Positions 1,309 through 42,646 of a stretch of DNA of 64,000 nucleotides are shown here, in pieces (the first letter of the stretch is position 1; every line of letters starts with the position of its first letter). The translations under genes and the position numbers were made by a program. Origin of the DNA: Naegleria gruberi. Its lineage: Eukaryota. The stretch lies in the NCBI GenBank assembly GCA_000004985.1, contig GG738913.1. One strand, given 5' to 3'. A model generated the notes under the pieces. The model saw only the letters and a list, made by a program, of their open reading frames with translations. It was not told where the DNA came from and did not search any database.

Positions 1309-4300
1309 ATGTTTGGACGTTTCTTTGGTAGTAAAAACAAGGCTGCATCAGCTGATGATGATATTTCTCAAGTTGAAACAACCACAACCACCACTACAAA
1401 TACAACACACCAACCAATGAAGAACAACAACAAGCAGTACACTAAAAAGGAGCCAAAGAATAGTGCTCCAAAGAAAATTGAATTATACGACAATGTAAAG
1501 ATAGTATCGGGAACAAGCATTCCAACAGGATTGGCTGCCAGTAGAGCTACTTGTATCAAGAAGACACCAATCACTGATAATATTCCTACATTCGAATCAA
1601 GTCCTGATTCTTTCATCCATGTACATATTGGAAAGGAATATTCTGACAAGGCTTCATCAGTTTTACCATTGGTGGCTCACAAAGTTCAATGTCACGTCAT
1701 GTATCCTATTGTTCAAGTCGTTTTCCACAATGACTTTTAGAAATACTATTGAAAATAGATCAATTGAAGGTGAATTAGTTCTTCCAATGCCTGAAACTGC
1801 CACGATGACTGGTTATGCAATGGAAGTTGATGGAAAACTCATTGATGCAGTTCCAGTTGAAAAGGAAAAGGCCAAGGAAGTTTTTGAAAGTGAAGTTAGA
1901 GCTGGAAATAAGGTTTCAATGGTTGAAAAGGTTGCACAATCCAATTGTTTCCGTACTCGTATTTATCCATTACCATACAATCAAGATAAGACAATTCAAG
2001 TCAAGTATCAATTAATGTTGAATGAGATTATCGAAACTCAAAATGAAAATGAAACTGGTACAATTAAGGGCACTGCTTGGTTCCCTGTTACTTATACAGA
2101 TTTCTCAGTATTAAGAGAATCCAACATTGAATTTACTTTGAATGAGACATCATTGCAAGGATATGAAACTAATTTTACAATGAAAACTTCAGGAGTTGAA
2201 GAAAAGACTATCTGGTCAAGTAAGAATGCAAGCAAGAGAGCTGCTTATTTCAATGTTACCAAGAGTGATTTATCTGACAAATTGATTGGTTTTGGTATTG
2301 AAATTACCAAACAGGCTGATTCAGTTAATAATATTTTACTTGCATCAGAAAATGGTTACTTTATGACCTCTATCCCAGTTCCATCTTTGACCGAAGAAAT
2401 GAGAAATATGTCTCGTATTGGAGACAAAATTCAAATTGTTTGGGATTCATCACTTTCACAATCTAATTGTCATGCAAAGAATTTACAATTATTCAAGGCA
2501 ATTTTGGAAGCTTTGAATCCAAAAGCAATTTCCTTCTCAACATTCAGTAATGCCATTGTAGATCAAAAGAATTTTTCATCCACTTCAGATGCTTTGAGTT
2601 ATGCTGAAAAGATTGTTTATGATGGTGGTTCTAACATGCTTGTTTTCGATCAAAATTTGATTGATGATAGTTTTGATTATTGCATTGCTTTTACTAATGG
2701 TGTTCACACAATTGGACATGAAATTACCCCATCATGCAGCTTTGAAAGACCAATTTACTTTGTCAACGCCTCATCTACTGTTAATATCAATCTCTTGAAG
2801 CACATCTCTACCAAGTCTGGTGGTGTTTACCTCAATGCCAACGAACTTTCACAAGATCAAATTTTGAATGCTATTGGTAAACCAGTCTTGTCATTTGTTG
2901 TTGCAGATTTCGAAGATTCTGATATGGAAGAAGTTTATCCAAACGAACCAGTTTCTTTGAAGGAAGGAGAAATTTTCAAATTATATGGTAAAATCAAAAA
3001 CTCTGGAAAGGAAACAGCTAAGGTTGCTGTATCTTTCAGATATGGTTCAAAGATTTATCACATTCAAGAACTTGATATTCCAACAAGTGTTAACAATGTT
3101 CCTGAAGAGGCTGCCATTCTTCCAACTTTGTGGGCTCAACAAAAGATTGACTCTCTCTCTGCATTCCCTCAACTTTTCAAGGATGATATTAAGAAGATTG
3201 GCCAAGAATTTAGGATTGTTACTGACAATACTTCCCTGATTGTTCTTGAAACTTTGAGTCAATATCAAAAACATGACATTGTTCCGCCAAAGACTCTCAC
3301 TGAAGTCTATAAACAATTCATGCAAGTAAAGACATCTGCACAAGAAGCTAAGGATAAACAAGAAAAGGAAAAGTTAGAAAGAATTATTAGTATGTGGAAG
3401 GAAAGAGTTAATTGGCATAAGACTGACTTTAAATTACCTGAAGAAAAGCCAGAAAAGGAAAAGAAAAAGTTGGCTGCAATGGATGACTGTATTTCTGAAT
3501 CTCTCTCTGTACAATCCTCTAGTTTGGATAGTTGTTGTAGATGTGAGGAGAGTAGAGAATGTTGCAGAGAATGTTGCAGACGTTCTTGTGCACCATCTCC
3601 AAGTTGTGCTAGAAGTTGTTGTTGTCGTTCTGCTAGTCCTTCTTTGAGTTGTTCAGATATCAGTTCAGGTCCACCACCAGCTTTTGGAAGTGCAGGTAGT
3701 CCACCACCTCCTTCTGCTAAGTCAGTAGCCTCTCAAGAAGAACCTAGTGTTGCTGGTACCATTAAGGTTAAAGCATGGACTCCAGATGCTGCTTATTGTA
3801 CTGCCATTAGTCAAGCTAAAGATCCATATGAAGAATATGTTAAACAAAGAGAAAGTTATAGAGATTCTCCAGCTTTCTATTTGGATGTTGCTGACTATTT
3901 CCTTTCATCAGTTAAGAATAAGGAAATTGGTGTGAGAATTCTTACCAACGTTTCAGAGCTTGAATTGGAAAATGTTCAACTTTATCGTATTGTTGGTTAT
4001 AGACTTGATCAAGCTGAAGAATTGGAATTGGCTGAATGGGTCTTTGAAAGAGTTAAGAGCATTAATGGATTTGAACCTCAATCATACAGAGATCTTGCTC
4101 TAGTTAAGGAAAGAATGGGAAAGCATGAAGAAGCTATGGAATTATTCAATAGAGTTATTGTTGGTAAATGGGATCTTCGTTTTGATGAAATTGAAATGAC
4201 CGTTGCTACAGAGATGAACCATCTTTTGCTTAACAATCCAGATTTACCAATCATTGATAAGAGATTGATTCACAAGTTTGACCTCGATATTCGTATTTCA

Positions 4301-4654
4301 ATGGCCTGGGACACTGATAATGTTGATATTGACTTGCACGTTCAAGAGCCAGGAAGACATGGTGAACATGCTTATTATGCTCACAATAGAACAAGAATGG
4401 GAGGTTATGTTTCCAGAGATTTCAGACAAGGATATGGTCCAGAAGAATACATGTTAAAGAAAGCTCAAAAAGGTGCTTACAAAGCTACAACAAATTATTT
4501 CAGTAACCATTCTCAGAGCTTGACAGGTGGCACAACCATTTTGTGTACCTTCTTTACAAATTATATGAGACCAAATGAACAAAGACAAATGTCAACCATT
4601 AGATTATCTTCACAAAAGCAAGACATTGTCGTTTGTGAAATTGATATTGCTTAA
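1309..4654 (+). CDS. VIT-domain + von Willebrand factor A protein with a Cys-rich insert and a TPR-like C-terminal region. The reading frame is broken by a 1-nt shift at a T4 run (1736-1739)
   Basis: ORF 1309..1740 ends ...LVAHKVQCHVMYPIVQVVFHNDF*. ORF 1619..4654 continues RNTIENRSIEGELVLPMPETATMTGYAMEV. Together they form one continuous VIT domain (the x.F.N...E..y.FPLP pattern). The vWA-like region (LVFDQNLIDDS...NGVHT) follows. The two frames differ by +1 at the run gacTTTTag. Confidence 0.6.
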
Positions 4655-4705
4655 ATCAATAAAATATAAAAGTATTATTTCTGAATATTACTCTCCATCA
4701 CAACA

Positions 4706-5767
4706 TTAAAAGCATTTTCTATGTACTATTGAAGGTCCAATTTCATCATACTCTTTGCATGAAATCCACATTGGTTCAAACGATGATAGAGAAGATAACA
4801 GGCTACCTCCAAGCCAAACTGAATATTTTCTAAATGGTGGAGCCTCAACATTGATTTTCACATTTGATGGAGCCAATGCACTTAACTCTTTTTCCACTCG
4901 TTCTGACAATCCTGTAAACATTGTTGTTCCACCTGCTAAGATTATATTTGAAAACATATCCTTTCTAACATCCATGTCACATTTTCTAATAGAATTGAAA
5001 ACCTGTTCATGAATCCCAGAATGTGAATCAAGATTGGGATTGAATAATTCCTCTGTGCATTTGAATCGTTCACATCCAATGTTAATCAAGCTTCCATCTG
5101 GTAATTCATAAGAAACATCAGTCACTGCCTTTTCATTTTCCTGATCAAAATCCAATGCAACATAGCAAATATTATGCTTCATATCTGTCATGACATCTGT
5201 TGGATGCTCTGCAAAATATGGTATTTTACATCCAGCAAATGCTTGAACCAAATATTCAGTAATTTCCCTTCCAGCAAAATTCCAACTTGAAATGGCATGT
5301 GTCAAGGCATATCCTTCATAGACAGGAACAGCTCTCGACACACTCTCTCCCAAATCCAAAACAATTCCACTTGTCTTGCCAGATGCAAACAACGCCAACA
5401 CTCCTTGCATTGCCACATAAAAACTTGATATATTAAACTCCTCAAACACGATCTGTGTCATCCTCTCTCTATTACACTTTGGTTCCCTCACTGCTTCACT
5501 CATCAAGATTGGATGTAATTCTGGCCTGCATCAAACTAGTTCCATATCAGACATGTTGGTAATGACACAATGTTCAATTGGATATTTCAATGTACAGATA
5601 CCTCTCTTAGCAATGGCTTCATCACCAACTATAGTGGTGCTTGTTGATTTCTTGTGGTGGCCAACTAGGGTTGGAAAGATTGATGTCGGAGTGTTGTCTT
5701 GTTCGTTTGCTATTCCTACTTTCATAGTACAAGATCCGTTATCAATTATTATAGCTGTTTTGGTCAT
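4706..5767 (-). CDS. Actin-family protein (divergent actin or Arp1-like) with an in-frame TGA at 5531-5533
   Basis: The N-terminal ORF ([12 protein letters not shown]...[31 protein letters not shown]) and the C-terminal ORF ([32 protein letters not shown]...[17 protein letters not shown]...[13 protein letters not shown]) are in the same frame. A single TGA separates them. It aligns with the conserved Trp of the actin DMEKIW motif. The ATG is at 5765-5767. Confidence 0.65.
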
Positions 5768-5902
5768 GTTTATTATATTTAATTTAGTTTAATTTAGTTT
5801 TTAAATTTGCTGGATGACAATAAAGTACCAGTTTAGAGTTTTTTGCATTTTTTTTGATTTTTAAATATCTCAGTTTAGTTTCTTCTTGAATAAAAAGTTG
5901 AA

Positions 5903-5994
5903 ACCCAGTGTCAGGACTTGAACCTGAATTATGTGATTTGGACTTGTTGTTCAAGTCCCGTCACATTCACATGTCTTTCATTAGACTACACAGG
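5903..5994 (-). tRNA. tRNA-like element, possibly an intron-containing tRNA or a pseudo-tRNA
   Basis: The minus strand has a perfect T-arm (tcagg-TTCAAGT-cctga, B-box-like GGTTCAAGTCC). A 5-bp anticodon-type stem (tgtga/tcaca) encloses 30 nt containing an internal hairpin (ggacttg-aacaa-caagtcc). A D-arm-like gtct/agac stem is present. The acceptor stem is 7 bp with one T.T mismatch. A T5 run lies 7 nt downstream (Pol III terminator-like). The D-loop lacks the conserved GG. Confidence 0.25.
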
Positions 5995-6940
5995 GTTGAG
6001 TGGAATTGTTTTTTGGCCACACGTGATGTGTTGGCTGTGTTCAAGGATTTTGAATCAGATTTTTGGTTTCAATGAATTAACATTTTCCAAATTTAGTACC
6101 TTTCAAAGTTTGTTAAAAATCGGTGAGTAGCTAACCCATGTTGTCTGCAATTGTTTCTAAATGGATTTTTGTGCCTTAATAAAATCAGAGTTGTTTCTTA
6201 AGAAGAAACATTTTTAGAATTAAATGTAAAGCAGGAATGAAGAAATAATTTTGTTTACCCCGATTATTTTCTGACCACCATACGCCCCTAAATAGATTTC
6301 TACCCCTCCTCACCACCTCAAACTGTAATGGGTCGACCAAATTCAATAAATGAATAATTGGCAAATTCATCTCCTTGCACCCTCTGAACAGTAATTCATT
6401 TGTATTAATTTTCTTCCTCTTCATCAACATATTCTCCATCTTCTTCCTCTTCTTCATCAACATCTTTAACATTTAATTTTTCCAATTTCTTCCTCATCTT
6501 CCACTTCATCATCATTATTTTCCGCATTTCCAGTTTGCACAATATATTCTGTTAATTTAGGCACACCATAATTTTCATATCGCCCCATTTCTTACGATTT
6601 AGCAGTGCTTTGTTTGTTACTGAGTCTCCAAAGTTGTGGGAATACCAGATTCTCTAGCAAGTTGAGTGGTGAATAAACCAATGTCAATGTTATTTGGGTG
6701 AACCGAACCTCCCATAGTTTTTTCATCATTTAATTGTTTTAAAAAATTTGTCACTCCTTACCATTATTAAGCATTTTTCATCATCACACCATCAAAAATG
6801 TTGAACACTCACTAGTAATGTTCTTCTACCTGGTTTTATGTAGAAACCATCTAAAATTCACAACAGAGAACATGATATAGTTGTTCTTGAAGAATATTTT
6901 CTAATAGTTTATTTTTCTGCTCGGATTACAATTAAAAAAA

Positions 6941-9142
6941 ATGTCTTCACTAGTTACGAGGGCACAACTGTTTAATCCTTCTAGTGTTTTTGTTTCATCA
7001 AATAATGAAGTTTATATTGCTGATTTTTGTAATCATAGAATTAGAAAAATATTAGAAAATGGAAATATTGTAACAATTGCAGGAAATGGAAATTATGGAT
7101 TTAGTGGTGATAATGGTCCTGCAACAAATGCACAATTTAATTATCCTTGTAGTGTTTTTGTTTCATCAAAGAATGAAGTTTATATTACTGATTATAGCAA
7201 TCATAGAATTAGAAAAATATTAGAAAATGGAAATATTATAACAATTGCTGGAAATGGAACTGTTGGATTCAGTGGTGATAATGGTCCTGCAACAAATGCA
7301 CAACTTTATAATCCTTCTAGTGTTTTTGTTTCATCAAATAATGAAGTTTATATTGCTGATTTTTGTAATCATAGAATTAGAAAAATATTAGAAAATGGAA
7401 ATATTGTAACAATTGCAGGAAATGGAAATTATGGATTTAGTGGTGATAATGGTCCTGCAACAAATGCACAATTTAATTATCCTTGTAGTGTTTTTGTTTC
7501 ATCAAAGAATGAAGTTTATATTACTGATTATAGCAATCATAGAATTAGAAAAATATTAGAAAATGGAAATATTATAACAATTGCTGGAAATGGAACTGTT
7601 GGATTCAGTGGTGATAATGGTCCTGCAACAAATGCACAACTTTATAATCCTTCTAGTGTTTTTGTTTCATCGAATAATGAAGTTTATTTTACTGATCAAC
7701 ATAATAACAGAATTAGAAAAATATTAGAAAATGGAAATATTATAACAATTGCTGGAAATGGAAATTATGGATTTAGTGGTGATAATGGTCCTGCAACAAA
7801 TGCACAATTGTATAATCCTAATAGTGTTTTTGTTTCATCAAATAATGAAGTTTATATTACTGATTAAAGTAATCAAAGAATTAGAAAAATATTGGAAAAT
7901 GGAAATATTGTAACAATTGCAGGAAATGGAACTGCTGGATTCAGTGGTGATTCACCTTTTAATATTATAATGTATCCTCATATTGGAAATAAGTTATTAA
8001 CTGGAAATAGTAGCTTGTACTCCAAAATAGAATATAATTTGAAAAAACATTCAAGAGATCAATTATTTGGATTTCAAATTTATGGATTCATTCCACTCAT
8101 TGAAAAAATTTCACCAAAATTTAGTAATATTTTGAAGAATGAAAAGATGCTTTGTTTGATGAGTTCATCACAACAAGAAATTATTCAAAAATTAATTGAT
8201 TCTTTGCTGTATGATAAGAACAAGGTAAAGTTTAGCAAAGAAGAAGTGTTGGATGTTTTATTCATTTTGGGTTTATTTAAGAATGGTGAATTTATTGATT
8301 TGAAAAGATCATTGACAAGTGAATTTGTGAACTCATTCACATTAGAAAATCTTACTTTCAAATGGGAAACAATTGAAAATTTACTCAAAACTTGCAATGA
8401 GGAATTTGGTATTCAAAATTACATTCTCGATCAATTGAATAACCATTGCATTGAATATGCTGCTGTTCAAATGCAAACCAAAGAAGGAAACACTTTATTA
8501 TCGACTCTTCCAATAATTATGAGAAATGCTACTGCCATATTTCCAAAAATGATCATTGCTCAACCAACTGCAATTAATATTGAGGAAACAATTGAAAATG
8601 AACCACAAACAATTGAATCATTATATGGTGATATGAAAACAAGTGATGTAAAAATCAAAATGGGACAAAACAAATACTTATATTGTCACAAAACTGTATT
8701 GAGTTCATCAAGTACATTGTTTAATGCATTATTTGACAGTGGATCTTGTTTCAGTGATTTGAGTGATGATGGAATATTCACACCTGACGAATCAGAAGAT
8801 TTGGAATTATTGGAAATTGTGATCAAATATTGTTATAGAATTTCAATTGACAAAATTGATGCTGTTAAAATTATTGGATTACTTGATATGGCAATGAAAC
8901 ATGAAATTCAATATCTAATCAATTATTGCAAGAATAACTTTACTCTATCCATTGATAATTACTTTGCTATGCTTGAAGTTTGTGAAAATTATTTTGATTT
9001 ACAACTATTTGAGCAATTTTTGAGAGAGATTCTCAAGTTTAGCATTGTCAACAGAAAACAACTCTTCATAGATCAAAATAGAATTTCCAAATTACCTGAA
9101 AAATTTTGGCAAGAAATCTTAAAGCTTTCACAGGACTTTTGA
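6941..9142 (+). CDS. NHL-repeat protein with a C-terminal BTB/POZ-containing region. An in-frame TAA sits at 7865-7867
   Basis: ORFs 6941..7867 and 7892..9142 are in the same frame and separated by one TAA. That codon lies inside an NHL repeat, where the paralogous repeats have TAT (Tyr). The downstream ORF has no ATG at its listed start; it is TTG. Six or more NHL-type repeats (NHRIRKILENGNI.TIAGNG..GFSGDNGPATNAQ) are followed by a BTB-like segment (VKIKMGQNKYLYCHKTVLSSSSTLFNALFD). Confidence 0.6.
6974..7981 (+). repeat. Tandem coding repeat. Two perfectly identical 336-bp units (6974-7309, 7310-7645) are followed by a diverged third unit
   Basis: Direct comparison of the nucleotide strings shows them identical. 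Each unit encodes two NHL-like repeats of about 56 aa. Confidence 0.9.
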
Positions 9143-10546: not shown

Positions 10547-13368
10547 TTATTCATATCTCTTAATTTCCAGAGATTCAGTATTATATTGTTTAGTTTTGCT
10601 TTTGCCACCACTTTTACTTGCTGATGATGAAGATGGTGGTGGTGTGAATTTATCGTACTCAATGAAACACTTCTCATTCCTGTAAATCTCAATAATCTTC
10701 TTCCAATGTTCATCAATACTCAATAACTCTGCATTGCCTACAATAACCATGAGTGATATGGCTCTGGAAATGGCCACGTTCAATCTCTTTGGATTTTGTA
10801 GGAAACCAAGCTTGAATTTGGAATCTTGTTCCAATCCTTCAGTGCTACTCGATCTGACAGTTGTCAAAAGGATGACTCTTCTTTCTTGACCTTGGAATTG
10901 TTCAGTAGTTCCAACAAAGATTTTTTTGTACAATGGATTGGTGGATTTTCTCAACAATTTTTTGATTTCTTCTGCTTGTTTTCTGTATGGAGTAATGATG
11001 CCAATTTCATGTTCAGGATTATATTGGTTGTGTTTGCTGTTGAAAACCAATCCAGACTTTACGATTTCATCCAATTTATCCATTAAAACTTGAATTTCTT
11101 TGGAATTATACCATGAAGGTGAGTCATTATCACGTTTCTCATCACCCTTAACGTGGTAAAACAACATTGGAACTTGTGGATTCTCCAAAATTGGATTGTT
11201 AATGAAGAGATTTGCTGAATTAATATCAGTACATGATGAAATTAAGGAATTATTATAAAATACAGAGCTATAGACTTGCATTATTTTAGGGTGAGCTCTG
11301 TATGATTGTTGTAATTGAGTAATAGAACAGCAATTATCTCCTAACTTGACTAAATGTTCCAAGAGGGATTCGCCCAATCCATATTCAACAGCAAGAGGAG
11401 ATCTTACAATTGGTCCAAGTTGTTTTGGATCACCTGCCAACACAACAACTGTATTGTCACCTTTCAAAGAGAATGGTATTAATGCTTCTGGAATAACAGA
11501 TTCACCAGATTCATCAATAATAATATGAGAAAAGTGTCCTGGCTTAACTCCCTTACTGTACAAATAACCAGATGAAGTGCATGTTGAAATAATTACATCA
11601 TATTTGGCGATTTCATGTAATTCTGGAATTTCAAAACCTTGATCAAGTTTGTTTGAGAATTTAATAATCCACCTCTTTGTGAATGTATTTGGATCTCTTT
11701 GAACACTATTCATTCTCATCATTTTCACTAATGGATTCAAGTTACTATCGACCAGTCTTTCCACAATAATATCAGCTGCTTGATTGGAAGGAGCACATAT
11801 GAGAATCTTGTGATTTGGATCTTGTTTCATAATTTCCAAGATACATTGAGATACTACGAATGTTTTACCTGTTCCAGGAGGTCCAAAAACTATTTTGATA
11901 TTAGTAAGAATCTAGCACCAGAAAATACATTCCTGAAATAAGGAGAGTCACACATTGAGAGAGCTCTATGCATCAACTTGATTGGAGTTCTTGAGAATCT
12001 GAAACTGATATCAACCTTTTCATACTTTTCTACATTTTCATGGAATGAAACAACTACATGATCTAAATTGACATAATGAATGAAACCTTTGAAAAGAACA
12101 GTTCTTGCCTTTGTTTCGTGATGAGGTCTACATAAAATCAAATCTCCTCTCAATACGGATGGTCTCTTTTCAGCAAGACCTGCACAATAGACTTTGTACA
12201 ATCTAGAATTAGGAGCATGTCTGTATCTTTCCTCATAGCTTTCCAATTTAATTCCTGACAAGTCGTATTGCTTAATGTCATAAATCATTTGGGCCTCTTC
12301 AACATGTAATAATGTTCCTAATAAATTATGAGTGTATGTGTACATGTCATTAGTAGAAACATGTTCATTTGGTTCCTGTTGAGTAACCTTTGTTCCTTGT
12401 TTCAATTCACCAGACAATTCATTCTTGAGTTGAGCATTCATTGCATGTTTTTCCAATATTTTCTTATTATCCAAAACATTCTTAATCTTATCAGGAAGTT
12501 CATAAGCTTCCAATGGTTTTTGGAATTTCATTCCATCCCCCAAAGGTCTCTTTCCAGATTTGACATTATTAAATCTCCAAACATGTCTATATTTTCTCTT
12601 CTTCAAATTTGGTAATTTGTAAATTCTGTCTGGATCATAATGAAGAGTGAAAATCTTCTTTACAGAACCACCCTCAAGAGTTTCCTTTTCAAGGGTCTGA
12701 TAGAAAAATAAAGTGGGATGTAAAATTTGATAAACCAACATTTGAGGACTCAATTGTGAATAATTCAACTTGAATCTTTTGTGAACCATTTTGAGAAGTT
12801 TCTTGGTATCCATCTTTCTTGGCACATCCAAAGTAGATGTGACAAAATGAATAATATCTCTCTTTCTATTCTCATCCAAAAGGAGACCATTCATACTTGT
12901 GCCATTATTATTATTATTATTATTATTGGACACAGATGGTGGTGGAGTTGATTCTGATTGTTGTGGAGTTGCTTGTTTCTTTGCTCTTTTCCTACGATTT
13001 GAATTTTTAGATGTTGTTTTACCTGTTGTGGTGGTGCCTGCAGAAGTCTGCTTGTGAGCAACATTTGATGATGCAGATGCATGTTGCACAACAACATTCA
13101 ATGCAGCTTTGAATGTTGTTGATGCATTAGCATTCACCATGCTCTTCTTAATATCGGCCTTCTTTTTACGAGTGCGCTTTGGCTGTGGAGGAGCCGTGTT
13201 GGCTAAATTTAAAGTAGTATCAGCCACCACTACATGTTGGTGATGGTCATCTGAAATAGTTGAAGTGTTATTTGCTGGTTTTCTTGTGCGTCTTGTTCTT
13301 CTTGTGCCTGCTTGTTGTGGGTAGTTGTTGTTTGGTGTTGGGTTGGGAGGTGGAATGGTGGTGGACAT
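10547..13368 (-). CDS. MOV10/Armitage/UPF1-like SF1 RNA helicase. The reading frame is broken by a 1-nt shift near 11850-11890
   Basis: The helicase core ORF has motif Ia (ILICAPSNQAADII), DExx (HIIIDESGE), VLAGDPKQLGPIV, IGIITPYRKQ and VGTTEQFQGQERRVILLTTVRS. Walker A (GPPGTGKT) is encoded just upstream of its listed start, in the same frame. That frame overlaps the end of the N-terminal ORF (...FSGARFLLISK*). One extra A in the run tcAAAAtag would fuse them into ...LLISKIVFGPPGTGKT.... The N-terminal part carries an NLS-like KRTRKKK and a poly-N run. Confidence 0.65.
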
Positions 13369-13613
13369 TTTTTTGGATTTGATTGGCGAAATGTTTCGAG
13401 AGTTATTTGTTTATGATTCTCTTGAATTCCCAACCTTTACCAAAATGGAAATCGCTATAAATAAATAGATTGGGAATAGTTTAAATTCAATAGAATGTAT
13501 AGCTTGAATCTTTGAGATTGCCATTATTTCTGGATCTTGTTTTAATGAAATGATCATGATTTTCATTTCTAGCGAATGAGGAAATTTTTTGAATGAAAAC
13601 GAAACATCTCGAA

Positions 13614-25257: not shown

Positions 25258-25887
25258 TTAATGTCTACGTCCTCCTGATTTCTTCTTTACTGTTTGGAAA
25301 CCATCTTCATCAATTTCTGGTTCTTCCTTAACATGAACATGGTCATGGTTATGATCAGCCATGTTAGCATCTTCATCATCACTATCTACGTGATTAACTC
25401 TTATTTTCTCTTCCTTTTCTTCATGTAATTTCTTTTCAACAAATTCTGCTTCTGATGGCATTTCAAATGGTGTTCCTTGTTTTTCCGAAAGTAATCTAAT
25501 GACTTCAGTAAAATTATTATTGAGAATTTGTTTGAAAAGTATGAGAATATGTTTAGAAACAATTTTAATTGATCCATCAAGAATATCAATACCTAAATCT
25601 TCTTCCAAAACATCATTCATATATTGTACAACTTCATCAACTTCTAATTGGTCACCATCATTAGAAATCCACTCTTTAATATTATTTTGGAATTCATCCA
25701 ATAAATCATCGGTATCACCTCCCGAAGCAGAATGTTGTCTAGCAAGAGTGAGAGCAGTCCATTTGCTAAAGATTGTATTAACGGCTTTACAGAAGTAAAA
25801 ATATTGATACAGAGAATAATTATCGTTATGTTTTGGTGATTTAATATCAGAAGAAGCGGACGAAGATGTTGGTGTGTTAGTTTGCAT
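25258..25887 (-). CDS. Hypothetical acidic protein
   Basis: A 209-aa ORF with an ATG start and an acidic, His-rich C-terminus. No recognisable family. Confidence 0.4.
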   Translation of the reverse strand: MQTNTPTSSSASSDIKSPKHNDNYSLYQYFYFCKAVNTIFSKWTALTLARQHSASGGDTDDLLDEFQNNIKEWISNDGDQLEVDEVVQYMNDVLEEDLGIDILDGSIKIVSKHILILFKQILNNNFTEVIRLLSEKQGTPFEMPSEAEFVEKKLHEEKEEKIRVNHVDSDDEDANMADHNHDHVHVKEEPEIDEDGFQTVKKKSGGRRH

Positions 25888-25935
25888 TTTTTTTTCAAAG
25901 ATTCGAAATAAATGTGGAATTTGGTTTAATTGTTT

Positions 25936-27471
25936 TTATTGGTTTTGCATTGCTTTGAGTTTGCTCATTTGAAGAATCATTCGATTGGATTCGTAACATT
26001 CTCTAACTAATTGTTGTAATTCAATTGATTCTCTTCTTTCTTGCTGTTTTTCTTCAGAGGTTTTCAGTGCTTCTGTTCTGAAATCTAAAACAACATTGAC
26101 ATAATTTCTTAAATGGACTGGTGCCTTATTTTCTCTATCAACAGAAAAATGTACCACATCTGCTGTTGGAGTCAAAACTGAAAATGAAAAATTATTTTTC
26201 TCTTTTTCAGACATATCAATAATTGTTCTATCCTCAAATTTAGCTCGTATTCTACCATCGGCAAATAATTGAAAATGACCAATTGATTTGTAATGAGATT
26301 CTTTAAGTATTTGAGATGAATAATTCTTCTTTGTTTGAACCTCCAAATTTGGTTTGTAAACGACCATCTTTTGAGAATTCTCGAAAAGGTGTTTCATTAT
26401 TTGGAAAAGCTCCTTGCTAGGTAATGATTTTGTAATCTCTACACCTTTCCTGCTTTCAGAGAAGCTGTATATTTCTGGTGGAAGTATATTGACATCAAAC
26501 ACCTTTGACAATGGCCTCGAATAACTAGGATCATAAGACCACAGTTTGAAAAAACTGAAAATATCTGAGAGAAAATATAATTCCTCTTCGTTCAATATTA
26601 ATTCCACAACTTCTTTCAAGTATTTTAACGTCATAAATTGAGTATACTCTATTAGAATCGTATTATTTTTCTCCAAACAACATGATAAATATCCTATACA
26701 ACTTTGATTTTGTCGATGGGTGGCAATACTCTTGTAGACACTCGATAGAGTGACATTATTAACTCCCTTTTTCACTTCTCCAGTAAGTCTTGATGTCTTT
26801 TTAGTTTGTGGAAGTGTCATTGTGTAAATAATTTCCACATTTACTGGCTTTTCATCCTTATCGTATCTTTGCTTGTAGTAATAGAGTGCAATAGCAACTG
26901 CATATTTCCATCTATCAGGATAACAATGTTTAGAAAATAATTGATCTTGCTTAATGTACAAAAATTTAGATTGGTTATTTCTATAAATTATTTAGCTTTT
27001 CTAAAATGATTGATTCCACATACCTCGAATGAACTACTGCTGGGAATGATATTTTAAAAAGTACTCCGTTTGGGGCCACTGTTATTGAAACAAAATCAGG
27101 GTAGGTGAAACTCTTCAACGTTATACTTCCATCTTTATGATAGGTAACCAATTCTGAATCGAATTTCCACTGAACAATTGACATATTTACAGACGACTCG
27201 AATAAATTAGCAGAAAAATACTCCTTCGCAAGAATTTGCTCGCATAAATAAGGTTCCTCAACGTGACAATTATAAAACAGTAATAATTGATTCAATTTCA
27301 TTTTGATTTGTTCCTTTCCCTTATTTTGAGCAAATGCTGTAATTTGAAATTCAAACTTGGGAGGCTTCCTCTCCAATATAACATCAAGATCCCTATCCGA
27401 TCCTTCCGATAATCCTTCACTGTAGTAATAAAATATTGTTCCTTCCTCTGCTAATAAAATTGCTGTTTGAT
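25936..27471 (-). CDS. Hypothetical multi-exon gene, 5'-incomplete because it runs into the assembly gap
   Basis: Proposed exons are 27471(gap)..27024 and 26980..25936, joined by a 43-nt intron at 26981..27023 (donor GTATGT, acceptor TTTATAG). This gives ...FPAVVHSR/NNQSKFLYIKQDQLF.... The upstream ORF is open right up to the N run. The C-terminal region contains segments faintly resembling a polo box (HFQLFADGRIRAKFEDRTIIDM). Confidence 0.4.
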
Positions 27472-39434: not shown

Positions 39435-39845
39435 TTAGAGTTCATCCTTGAAATCAACAAATTTAACATTGTTTTGTTCCAAAAGCTTTTGGAGTTCTCC
39501 AGTTTTGTGAAGCTTATGAGCCAAATCGCAACCTCCTACATATTGTTGACCAATCCACAAGGAAGGAACTGTTCTGGATCCACTTCTTGATGAAACTTCT
39601 TGTTGAATTTCAAAGCCATCGGCCAATTGATCAAGTTGTACAACATTAACATTTTCAATTGATAATTTCTTCAACAAGCCAACCAATCTTTGGCAATATG
39701 GGCAATAGCTTTTAGAGAAGACGGTTACTTGGTGATTATTAATATTTTCATCAACAAAAGTAGCAATTTCTGGGGAAGCAATAGTTCCGACAATAAATAA
39801 GTTGGCAATCAATACTAAGAAAAGAAGAGAAGTGATGACTTTCAT
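39435..39845 (-). CDS. Secretory-pathway glutaredoxin (CPYC type)
   Basis: A signal peptide (MKVITSLLFLVLIANLFIVGTIA) precedes the active site SKSYCPYCQ. The glutathione-binding motifs TVPSLWIGQQYVGGCD are present. Confidence 0.75.
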   Translation of the reverse strand: MKVITSLLFLVLIANLFIVGTIASPEIATFVDENINNHQVTVFSKSYCPYCQRLVGLLKKLSIENVNVVQLDQLADGFEIQQEVSSRSGSRTVPSLWIGQQYVGGCDLAHKLHKTGELQKLLEQNNVKFVDFKDEL

Positions 39846-39965
39846 TTTTTTGATTTTAGAATCCTTTCTAATCATATCAGAATCGTTTCCTATTATTTTG
39901 AAACAAAAAAGAAACCTTAGAAATTGTTGCATTATGATAGGATTTTAATTTACATTTATTTTGTA

Positions 39966-41759
39966 TTAGACTTGTGTGGCTTCCTCTACTGAAACATTAT
40001 TGATATTTTCTGGAATTTTGGATTCGAGTTGAGTCTTTCGCCTCGAATTTAAAACTTGAGCACATGTCTTTAAGCCAACATCTCTCTTGAATAATTCCTT
40101 CATGAATTGTTTAATGTCTTCACCCTTATCACCAACCTTATCTTCCATTCTTGCATCACCTAGAACTTTAAGAACTTGAGTTCTTTGAGCATCTCCTAAT
40201 TTACTAAACCTGGTATATATTTCAGTTACTAACTCCACTACTTCAGTATTGTTGCTCAAGCCAAACTTTAAAGCATAGAGAGACTTGAGATTGGCATCAT
40301 CACTAGTGAGCAAGTTGACCAATACTTGATTTGCACTTCCTAGTTGGTGTTTGAGAACTGTCAATCCTACAATAGCTTCATGCAAAATGGCCATTTTAGG
40401 ATGAGAATTGTGGATTGTTACAGTTTCCATCATGACACTGAAAAATTCCTTTGTGTTCAATTCATTACTGGAGAGAATGTTCTGTCTATGTTCGTTAGTG
40501 ACAACAAGAGGTGTCATTGGAGAGGTTGCCTCACCGACAGGTTCTGAGATTCTAGTGTTTGAGCTATCACCCAAGAGTATTTCCAAAAATTCATACAAAC
40601 TAGATGAATTATTGACTCCCTTGATGGCTCTCAATTGTAGAAGGAATCTGTAGGACTTAACGAGCGGATGTTCAGCCAAATCATTTACACCAATTCTAAC
40701 TTTAGGATCAGGGTGAATCATCTTCATGATTAACTCCTTCATACTTGGTAATTTTACACTATTAAACAATTCCATAACTCTATGAGGTTCCTCAACAACA
40801 ATTTCACTGAATTCATCGTGAGAGTACGAACAGGCCAACTCTAAAATTGTCACACCCAAAGAGTAGACATCTACTGCACTAGTGTAACCAGTTCTATTGT
40901 AAATTTCAGGAGCAGCATAGAGTGGAGAACCACACATGGTACTAGCCATTTGTTTAGCCATGAGAGCCTTTGAAAGTCCAAAATCAGCCAATTTAATAAC
41001 CATTCTACCATCAACAGCCTCAATCAACATGTTTGAAGGTTTGATATCTCTATGAATCACACCACGAGCAGAGCAGAATTTGATAGATTCAATCATATCA
41101 ACAAACCAGCCAGTAATTGACCAAACAGGGAAGTTAACCTTTTCATTCATGACAACAGCTTCTAAATAGTCAGCAATTGATCCCAACTCACAATATTCTG
41201 AAACAATTACAATACAATCAGTATTCTTTTCATCTTTCATTTCAAAAGTATCAAGTAAACGTAAAATATTGGGATGGATCAGTGATTTCATAATTTCAAT
41301 TTCGTTTTGAATCTTTTCCAAATCTCTCAACTTTTCAGGTTTAATCAAAATCTTCAATGCCAAATCTTTACCAGTATTTGTTTGTTTGACGTGATAAACT
41401 TCACCAAATGTTCCTCTACCAACCAATTTAATTACTTCATAACCAATTTTTTCTGTGACATCTCCACTAATGGAACCATGACGTTTCGAATTACCACTGC
41501 TACTACTACTACCTCCACTTGGAGTTGGTGATGTTGGAGAGTTTGCAGAATTGGCAGAGAGGAATTTTGCAGATGGTTGTGAGTTATTAGGAGAAGTTGT
41601 TTGACTTGTTGTAGCATTCGGATTATAGTAAATTTCTCCATCATAGAGTCTATTATTATTTGGAGCTTTTCTTACAGATTTACGTCTGAATTGTTGAATT
41701 TCAGGAAGTTCTTGAAAAGCCATTCTAGACTTGCTAGTGCTCACTCCAATATTACCCAT
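39966..41759 (-). CDS. Ser/Thr protein kinase with a C-terminal helical-repeat extension (ULK/Fused-like)
   Basis: Motifs are GRGTFGEVY, LALKIL, HRDIKPSNMLI, LADFGLS and GSPLYAAPE. An N-terminal MG suggests a possible myristoylation site. The C-terminal roughly 280 aa is helical. Confidence 0.75.
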   Translation of the reverse strand: MGNIGVSTSKSRMAFQELPEIQQFRRKSVRKAPNNNRLYDGEIYYNPNATTSQTTSPNNSQPSAKFLSANSANSPTSPTPSGGSSSSSGNSKRHGSISGDVTEKIGYEVIKLVGRGTFGEVYHVKQTNTGKDLALKILIKPEKLRDLEKIQNEIEIMKSLIHPNILRLLDTFEMKDEKNTDCIVIVSEYCELGSIADYLEAVVMNEKVNFPVWSITGWFVDMIESIKFCSARGVIHRDIKPSNMLIEAVDGRMVIKLADFGLSKALMAKQMASTMCGSPLYAAPEIYNRTGYTSAVDVYSLGVTILELACSYSHDEFSEIVVEEPHRVMELFNSVKLPSMKELIMKMIHPDPKVRIGVNDLAEHPLVKSYRFLLQLRAIKGVNNSSSLYEFLEILLGDSSNTRISEPVGEATSPMTPLVVTNEHRQNILSSNELNTKEFFSVMMETVTIHNSHPKMAILHEAIVGLTVLKHQLGSANQVLVNLLTSDDANLKSLYALKFGLSNNTEVVELVTEIYTRFSKLGDAQRTQVLKVLGDARMEDKVGDKGEDIKQFMKELFKRDVGLKTCAQVLNSRRKTQLESKIPENINNVSVEEATQV

Positions 41760-42646
41760 GTTTTCTTTTTGTCAACAATTTGAGTTTTAAAATCTGATAA
41801 TTATTATTGTTGTTGTATTATTCGATAATAATTGTCATCATTCATCGTAAAATGTTGTATAATTAATTATCATGTTGTTGTATAAATTCCATCATGATGA
41901 AAAGTATTTCATACGGAATTGTAAATATATTCATTGTCATCATCATCATTATGAAAACTTTTAAACTTACAAATTGATGATTGACCAAACAATTCAACCG
42001 ACACAGTAAATTTCAAAGGAAGAGAAATAATTGGGCGCCAAAATTTGGATTGAAATGAATCAATGTTTCGCTCAGTGCTTTTTTTTGATATTTTTAAGTT
42101 TCTTATTGGCAGAAAGGTGAATAGTTGATAATAATGGGAGATGAAAGTAAGTGACAATTGTTGAATGGTGAGTTGTTTATATTGCTGAGATACATTTTGC
42201 AAGAATCTTGGTGGATTGTATTCGAAAGTAGACGATTGTATTGTTGATATGATGGGCATTATGGATTGTGATTTTATTTACGAAAGCTCTATTGTGATAT
42301 CTCTAGTTAAAAATAGCTCCTCCATTTCCCTCAATAAAATTTCCAACTTTACATCATTAAGAATATATATAGAAGTGTATTAAAAAAACAATACCAAGCG
42401 TATCTTACTGCACATCGGAGATGAAAATAGTATTATAATATGTTTTTCCCTTTCAACAGAATGAGAGTGCAAAAATTACATTAAGATGAATTTTTATTGT
42501 GGTTCAAACATTAGTTTTGAGCATCGTCAATTGTTGAACTTCAGTCAGTTCCAAAATTACTGCTTTGGAGAAGAATTCACAATTTACAAATGCTTCATAC
42601 TCTCTTGGATAATTAACATTTAATCAATATTATAATGTCCTGTACT

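Follow-up and report, generated by a model that had tools for sequence, protein, structure and literature searches.

The closest well-known counterpart of the gene described here is conventional actin (PF00022), for which the Dictyostelium protein (PDB 1C0F chain A) can serve as reference. The gene lies in a 64,000-nt stretch of Naegleria gruberi DNA, which was analysed as a whole and is hereafter called the window. Its product shares with conventional actin about 55% identity, the N-terminal DNGS phosphate-loop region and the C-terminal sequence IVHRKCF. Unlike conventional actin, this paralog, also in its intact form, has a DNase-I-binding-loop region that is 7 residues shorter and carries Met where actin has W79. 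Its loops near residues 230 and 270 are shorter as well; 4 residues are missing near residue 230, and the hydrophobic-plug region lacks 2. The copy in the window differs further by a premature stop and by the absence of nine residues from a conserved segment.

TGA is read as Trp in Mycoplasma, in many mitochondria (table 4) and in some ciliates, e.g. Blepharisma and Condylostoma. Our locus resembles these codes only superficially, in having TGA where Trp is conserved: unlike in such codes, this is a single case, TGA terminates genes elsewhere in the window, and the orthologous gene has TGG. Unprocessed pseudogenes and null alleles are a further point of reference. With these the window copy has in common a disabling lesion, the original genomic context (a tRNA gene and flanks shared with the ortholog), and the loss of conserved residues. 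It is unlike a typical small-deletion pseudogene in that the loss is a multiple of three without frameshift, the stop having come about only via out-of-phase breakpoints, and unlike a decayed pseudogene in that further decay mutations are not yet present. As the case illustrates, neither a TGG-to-TGA change nor recoding is needed to place a stop on a conserved Trp; an out-of-phase deletion of a multiple of three nucleotides suffices. The kind of event is ordinary and adds nothing new on genetic codes or on actin biology; it is of use chiefly for annotation.

An actin-like gene with one in-frame TGA

The divergent actin-like gene extends over positions 4706..5767 on the minus strand of the window, from an ATG at 5767-5765 to a TAA at 4708-4706, with one in-frame TGA within, and corresponds to the N. 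gruberi locus NAEGRDRAFT_44817 (XP_002670654.1 / D2VZ15). The original prediction described two actin-like ORFs in one frame, split only by this TGA. Translation of the minus strand from 5770 to 4703 confirmed this arrangement and revealed one internal stop only. The N-terminal reading frame (5534..5767, minus strand) comprises 78 codons from the ATG and ends with SDMELV, followed by the premature TGA (5531..5533, minus strand; tca on the plus strand) and by the C-terminal reading frame (4709..5530, minus strand), which has 274 codons in the same frame, contains no other stop or frameshift and ends with IVHRKCF. The original coordinates were correct and lacked a strand; the gene is on the minus strand.

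Joined into one 353-aa sequence, with W substituted for the stop codon, the two frames matched solved actins over its full length (phmmer, E = 1e-122, residues 5-353) at an identity of about 55%. This bears out the proposed actin-family membership, and PF00022 is precomputed both for the reference model of this gene (P0002) and for the product of the intact ortholog introduced below (P0001). Judged by the full-length match, the gene is a member of actin family PF00022. Following P0002 and P0001, the next matches were conventional actins at ~50-55% identity, and no close ortholog from N. fowleri, N. lovaniensis or other Naegleria was among the top matches listed. On this pattern of matches, the gene looks like a divergent paralog confined to the lineage of N. 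gruberi.

In an alignment with 45 actins, the column of the stop was Trp in every one of them (W79 in P0001 numbering, presumably W86 in muscle-actin numbering), and the claim that the stop falls on an invariant actin Trp therefore holds. Directly C-terminal to the stop, the window sequence shows a 9-residue gap relative to every other aligned actin. This gap had remained hidden in the original prediction, where the alignment was elided ('...') at this point. The observation of an in-frame TGA at the actin Trp is sound and no chance pattern, and the gene does not constitute an uninterrupted ORF covering the whole domain, as it carries the TGA after codon 78 and has lost nine codons.

The 27-nt deletion relative to an intact ortholog

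A metagenome contig from ENA (L001, 2,111 nt) aligned to window positions 4514-6123 at 95% identity, spanning the actin-like gene and its upstream region. Its coding sequence (L001 827-1915) is intact and 97.8% identical to the window gene. The encoded protein, P0001, has 362 aa and reads DMELVWRKTIYEELRCRPELHP at the site in question. At the DNA level L001 has GTT TGG AGA AAA ACC ATT TAT GAA GAA TTG AGA TGC AGG at this position vs GTT TGA TGC AGG in the window, and the alignment of the two sequences contains one 27-nt gap located exactly at the TGA, with adjoining flanks that are base-for-base identical. The bases missing in the window run from the third base of TGG through the second base of the last AGA, and the TGA is composed of the TG of TGG and the final A of the AGA nine codons downstream. 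The break maps between 5532 and 5531; because of 1 nt of G microhomology it may equally be placed a base further left. Its length being divisible by three, the deletion leaves the downstream frame intact; being out of codon phase, with a two-base offset, it forms a stop at the junction. The single G-to-A change (TGG to TGA) put forward in the original prediction is thus unsupported, as the window is 27 nt short compared to the intact ortholog.

The nine codons lost in the window (W-RKTIYEELR) include five that are invariant across the 45 aligned actins. The sequence WRKTIYEELR of L001 corresponds to WHHTFYNELR(V) in conventional actin, and the invariant residues in this region are W79, T82, Y84, E86, L87 and R88 (P0001 numbering). 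We take the lost residues to be about H87-R95 of muscle actin, part of the subdomain 1 helix at ~79-92. An AlphaFold model of the intact ortholog, intended for mapping the lost segment, was discarded because of a mean pLDDT of 38 obtained with a too uniform alignment. As conventional actins carry the nine residues too, the long form is ancestral and the window copy is the one that underwent deletion. The window gene consequently bears a disabling mutation with respect to an intact ortholog, the ancestral state being backed by outgroup actins. The ortholog in this comparison is a single sequence, metagenome contig L001; JGI metagenomes searched with the exact junction-spanning pattern and with a degenerate version of it yielded no further orthologs; as a positive control, the degenerate pattern did match the window and also L001.

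Outside the junction, window and L001 differ by 22 substitutions, 12 nonsynonymous and 10 synonymous. The resulting dN/dS of ~0.31 is not neutral, and with 22 changes split over two lineages it says little on the window lineage alone. When polarised by eye, rather than by a formal test, against the conventional-actin consensus, three replacements appear to have arisen on the window side and two on that of L001, and a second disabling lesion is absent across the 353 codons. From these counts, no obvious excess of damage has accumulated in the window lineage, and the otherwise clean ORF suggests a recent lesion. The substitutions agree equally with a recent lesion, with a null allele in heterozygous state and with an artefact.

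The locus is best explained, and in our view probably so, by a genuine 27-bp deletion in a dispensable actin paralog specific to this lineage, which was thereby turned into a null allele or a young unprocessed pseudogene. In the NEG-M genome copy one deletion event, with 1 nt microhomology at the break, would have taken the last base of the Trp codon, the eight codons that follow it, and the first two bases of the next one. The junction codon TG+A would then read TGA, the reading frame beyond would be unchanged, and translation would end after residue 78. One out-of-phase deletion explains both the stop and the nine missing residues, so that a second, independent G-to-A event is unneeded. We infer that the lesion is present in the organism and not merely in the assembly, that it goes back to one event and not two, and that a functional protein is not made. 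The 27-bp lesion may be very young or heterozygous. With respect to the causes listed in the original prediction, a nonsense allele or pseudogene agrees with this explanation, and stop-codon readthrough finds no support, L001 having TGG and TGA serving as terminator of other genes.

Alternative explanations for the interruption

The 27 nt could also have been lost from the scaffold through an assembly, cloning or sequencing artefact, the organism itself having TGG and the complete segment. We regard this as unlikely, although the ORF is otherwise perfectly intact and still looks constrained, as expected from such an artefact, and the same truncated products occur in no independent assembly or called gene: exact look-ups of the 78-, 265- and 266-aa ORFs matched no other assembly, and an exact look-up of P0002 in the contig collection gave no match. 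A clean 27-nt loss in non-repetitive DNA with 1 nt microhomology is atypical of base-calling or consensus errors. Moreover, a neighbouring NHL-BTB gene 2 kb away bears a lesion of a different type, a point nonsense codon, which suggests real decay in multi-copy families and supports a genuine deletion in the actin-like gene. The public annotation likewise speaks against an artefact, since it derives from the same sequence and needed a workaround for the stop. A literature search for the locus tag or for Naegleria actin pseudogenes retrieved nothing relevant.

This workaround consists in a 54-nt GT..AG segment (GTCTGA...GATGAG; 5499..5552, minus strand), which is cut out as an intron in the public model. 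P0002 (XP_002670654.1 / D2VZ15), annotated as 'Actin' with 335 aa, is 100% identical to the window translation minus 18 residues, and the 18 codons absent from it are exactly this segment. P0002, P0127 and P0132 are each 100% identical to window ORFs and are all located on one 236,320-nt scaffold; the window is thus nuclear DNA of the N. gruberi NEG-M reference. If the segment were a genuine, newly intronized intron, the stop would be spliced out and a 335-aa actin-like protein would be produced. The GT..AG ends, the length in a multiple of three, and the adoption of this intron in XP_002670654.1 are compatible with splicing. However, in L001 the segment is in-frame, actin-homologous coding sequence with flanks that are 100% identical, and in the window it encodes SDMELV[W]..., homologous to DDMEKIW...PEEHPVLLTE of actin. 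Its splice sites GTCTGA / GAG also differ from GTAAGT, GTATGT or GTATTT ... TAG, as found in three likely real introns, a small sample comprising the helicase intron described below (GTATTT...AATAG), which restores the Walker A motif GPPGTGKT, and two others (GTAAGT...ATATAG and GTATGT...CCATAG). Furthermore, the spliced product would be 27 residues short of the intact ortholog, the deletion included, with loss of a conserved strand region, and a frame-preserving gene predictor would yield just such a model. This makes a real intron very unlikely; the 54-nt intron is most likely an annotation workaround, and XP_002670654.1 / D2VZ15 very probably represents an artefact of modelling a gene around its premature stop. 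Shorter introns around the TGA, of 11 nt (GTTTGATGCAG) and 16 nt (GTTTGATGCAGGCCAG), were rejected as their lengths break the frame.

A combined scenario, in which the deletion was followed by intronization so that cryptic GT..AG sites 54 nt apart now splice out the junction stop, or in a variant of it a leaky UGA is read by a near-cognate tRNA-Trp, appears highly improbable to us. Were intronization true, part of a recently damaged exon would now serve as a short intron of recent origin, and the gene would still yield an actin-like protein, though a shortened one. Just as little weight can be given to a history of two events, i.e. an in-phase loss of codons 80-88 leaving GTT TGG TGC and a subsequent G-to-A nonsense mutation. 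Both histories end in the identical sequence, but the second requires two mutations at one spot where one suffices, and no GTT TGG TGC intermediate allele is known.

The least probable explanation, to which we attach hardly any credence, is that the TGA is decoded, be it through reassignment to Trp, as selenocysteine, or by programmed or leaky readthrough with a near-cognate tRNA-Trp. The stop does fall precisely on a Trp position, and a tRNA-Trp(CCA) gene was called by ARAGORN ~135 nt upstream of the actin-like gene. However, the deletion junction already accounts for the position of the TGA, and the stop is not conserved, L001 having TGG beside the same upstream tRNA gene. A simple point error or readthrough is insufficient in any case, as the decoded actin would still miss the nine residues of the conserved segment.

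Within the window TGA acts as a terminator: the BTB gene ends with SQDF-TGA, the same C-terminus as in its paralog P0122 (SQDF), and an Hsp70-family ORF is likewise terminated by TGA. For this reason, and because the protein matches assign the window to N. gruberi, both reassignment of TGA and an origin from a giant virus or a ciliate, which the AT-rich and ORF-dense sequence had suggested, were rejected. Only one further premature stop was found in the window, a TAA and not a TGA, and the recommended check for further TGA-interrupted conserved genes found none besides the actin-like gene in the 64,000 nt. Trp is encoded by TGG at 143 of the 14,399 codons in stop-to-stop ORFs of the window, a normal 1.0%. 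The 3' context is UGA-UGC-AGG; a U follows the stop, and the CUAG motif, which stimulates readthrough from this position, is absent. Concerning selenocysteine, no SECIS element was detected at E <= 1 in 4000-6400, and homologs carry Trp at the stop position, lending no Cys/Sec support. A suppressor tRNA was also rejected: no tRNA with a UCA anticodon was found in the window, and the lone tRNA gene there, the intron-containing one upstream (Rfam, ARAGORN -i), has CCA or GUG depending on intron placement.

Neighbouring genes

The window has ~34% GC and includes genes of an ordinary eukaryotic kind, e.g. for Sec23/24, an Hsp70-family protein, a translation GTPase, kinases and a MOV10-like helicase. 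The NHL-repeat/BTB gene extends over 6941-9142 on the plus strand, with an in-frame TAA at 7865-7867. This TAA falls in the sixth NHL repeat (EVYITD*SNQRIRK), at a codon that is TAT, TTT or CAA in the other repeats. P0121, an N. gruberi protein 98% identical to the product of the NHL-BTB gene, has Gln at this position, and an exact look-up of it in the contig collection gave no match. The stop likely derives from a CAA-to-TAA (C-to-T) change, the CAA being deduced from the P0121 protein. Paralogs of this gene are single proteins of 679-733 aa. The reference splits the locus into D2VZ16 (308 aa) and D2VZ17 (390 aa), which are the two halves of one nonsense-interrupted NHL-BTB gene. Both models match their window ORFs with 100% identity and share a scaffold with the actin-like gene.

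Two same-frame ORF pairs were considered as interrupted genes and rejected. The pair at 25261-26991 comprises distinct genes, C5orf34-like and TSR2, and the pair at 39438-41771 a kinase gene with an independent ORF downstream of it.

On the other side of the actin-like gene, a 1011-aa ORF (1619-4654, plus strand) combines a VIT domain at the N-terminus with DUF2135, a domain that has been described in bacteria, at the C-terminus, and includes a low-complexity stretch rich in Cys, Arg and Ser (CCRCEESRECCRECCRRSCAPSPSC). The exact 1011-aa protein had no match in the contig collection.

The tRNA gene preceding the actin-like gene maps to 5902-5996 on the minus strand (Rfam tRNA, 43.9 bits) and is missed by ARAGORN in its default mode. 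With option -i, ARAGORN calls Trp(CCA) with a 23-nt intron at the non-canonical position 30/31; placing the intron at the canonical 37/38 site would make it His(GUG). The tRNA gene of L001 differs at three bases, all inside the intron called by ARAGORN, and one of these would convert GUG to CUG in the canonical reading. The predicted tRNA lacks GG in its D-loop, shows a mismatched U-U in its acceptor stem, and has U73. If true, a tRNA intron at a non-canonical site would be mildly interesting in a heterolobosean.

The MOV10-like helicase gene lies on the minus strand in two frames, with ORFs at 11893-13410 and 10550-11911. Its halves are apparently joined by a ~39-nt intron at about 11865-11903 (minus strand; GTATTTTCTGGTGCTAGATTCTTACTAATATCAAAATAG), the removal of which restores the Walker A motif. 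This short intron holds a TACTAAT branch-like motif.
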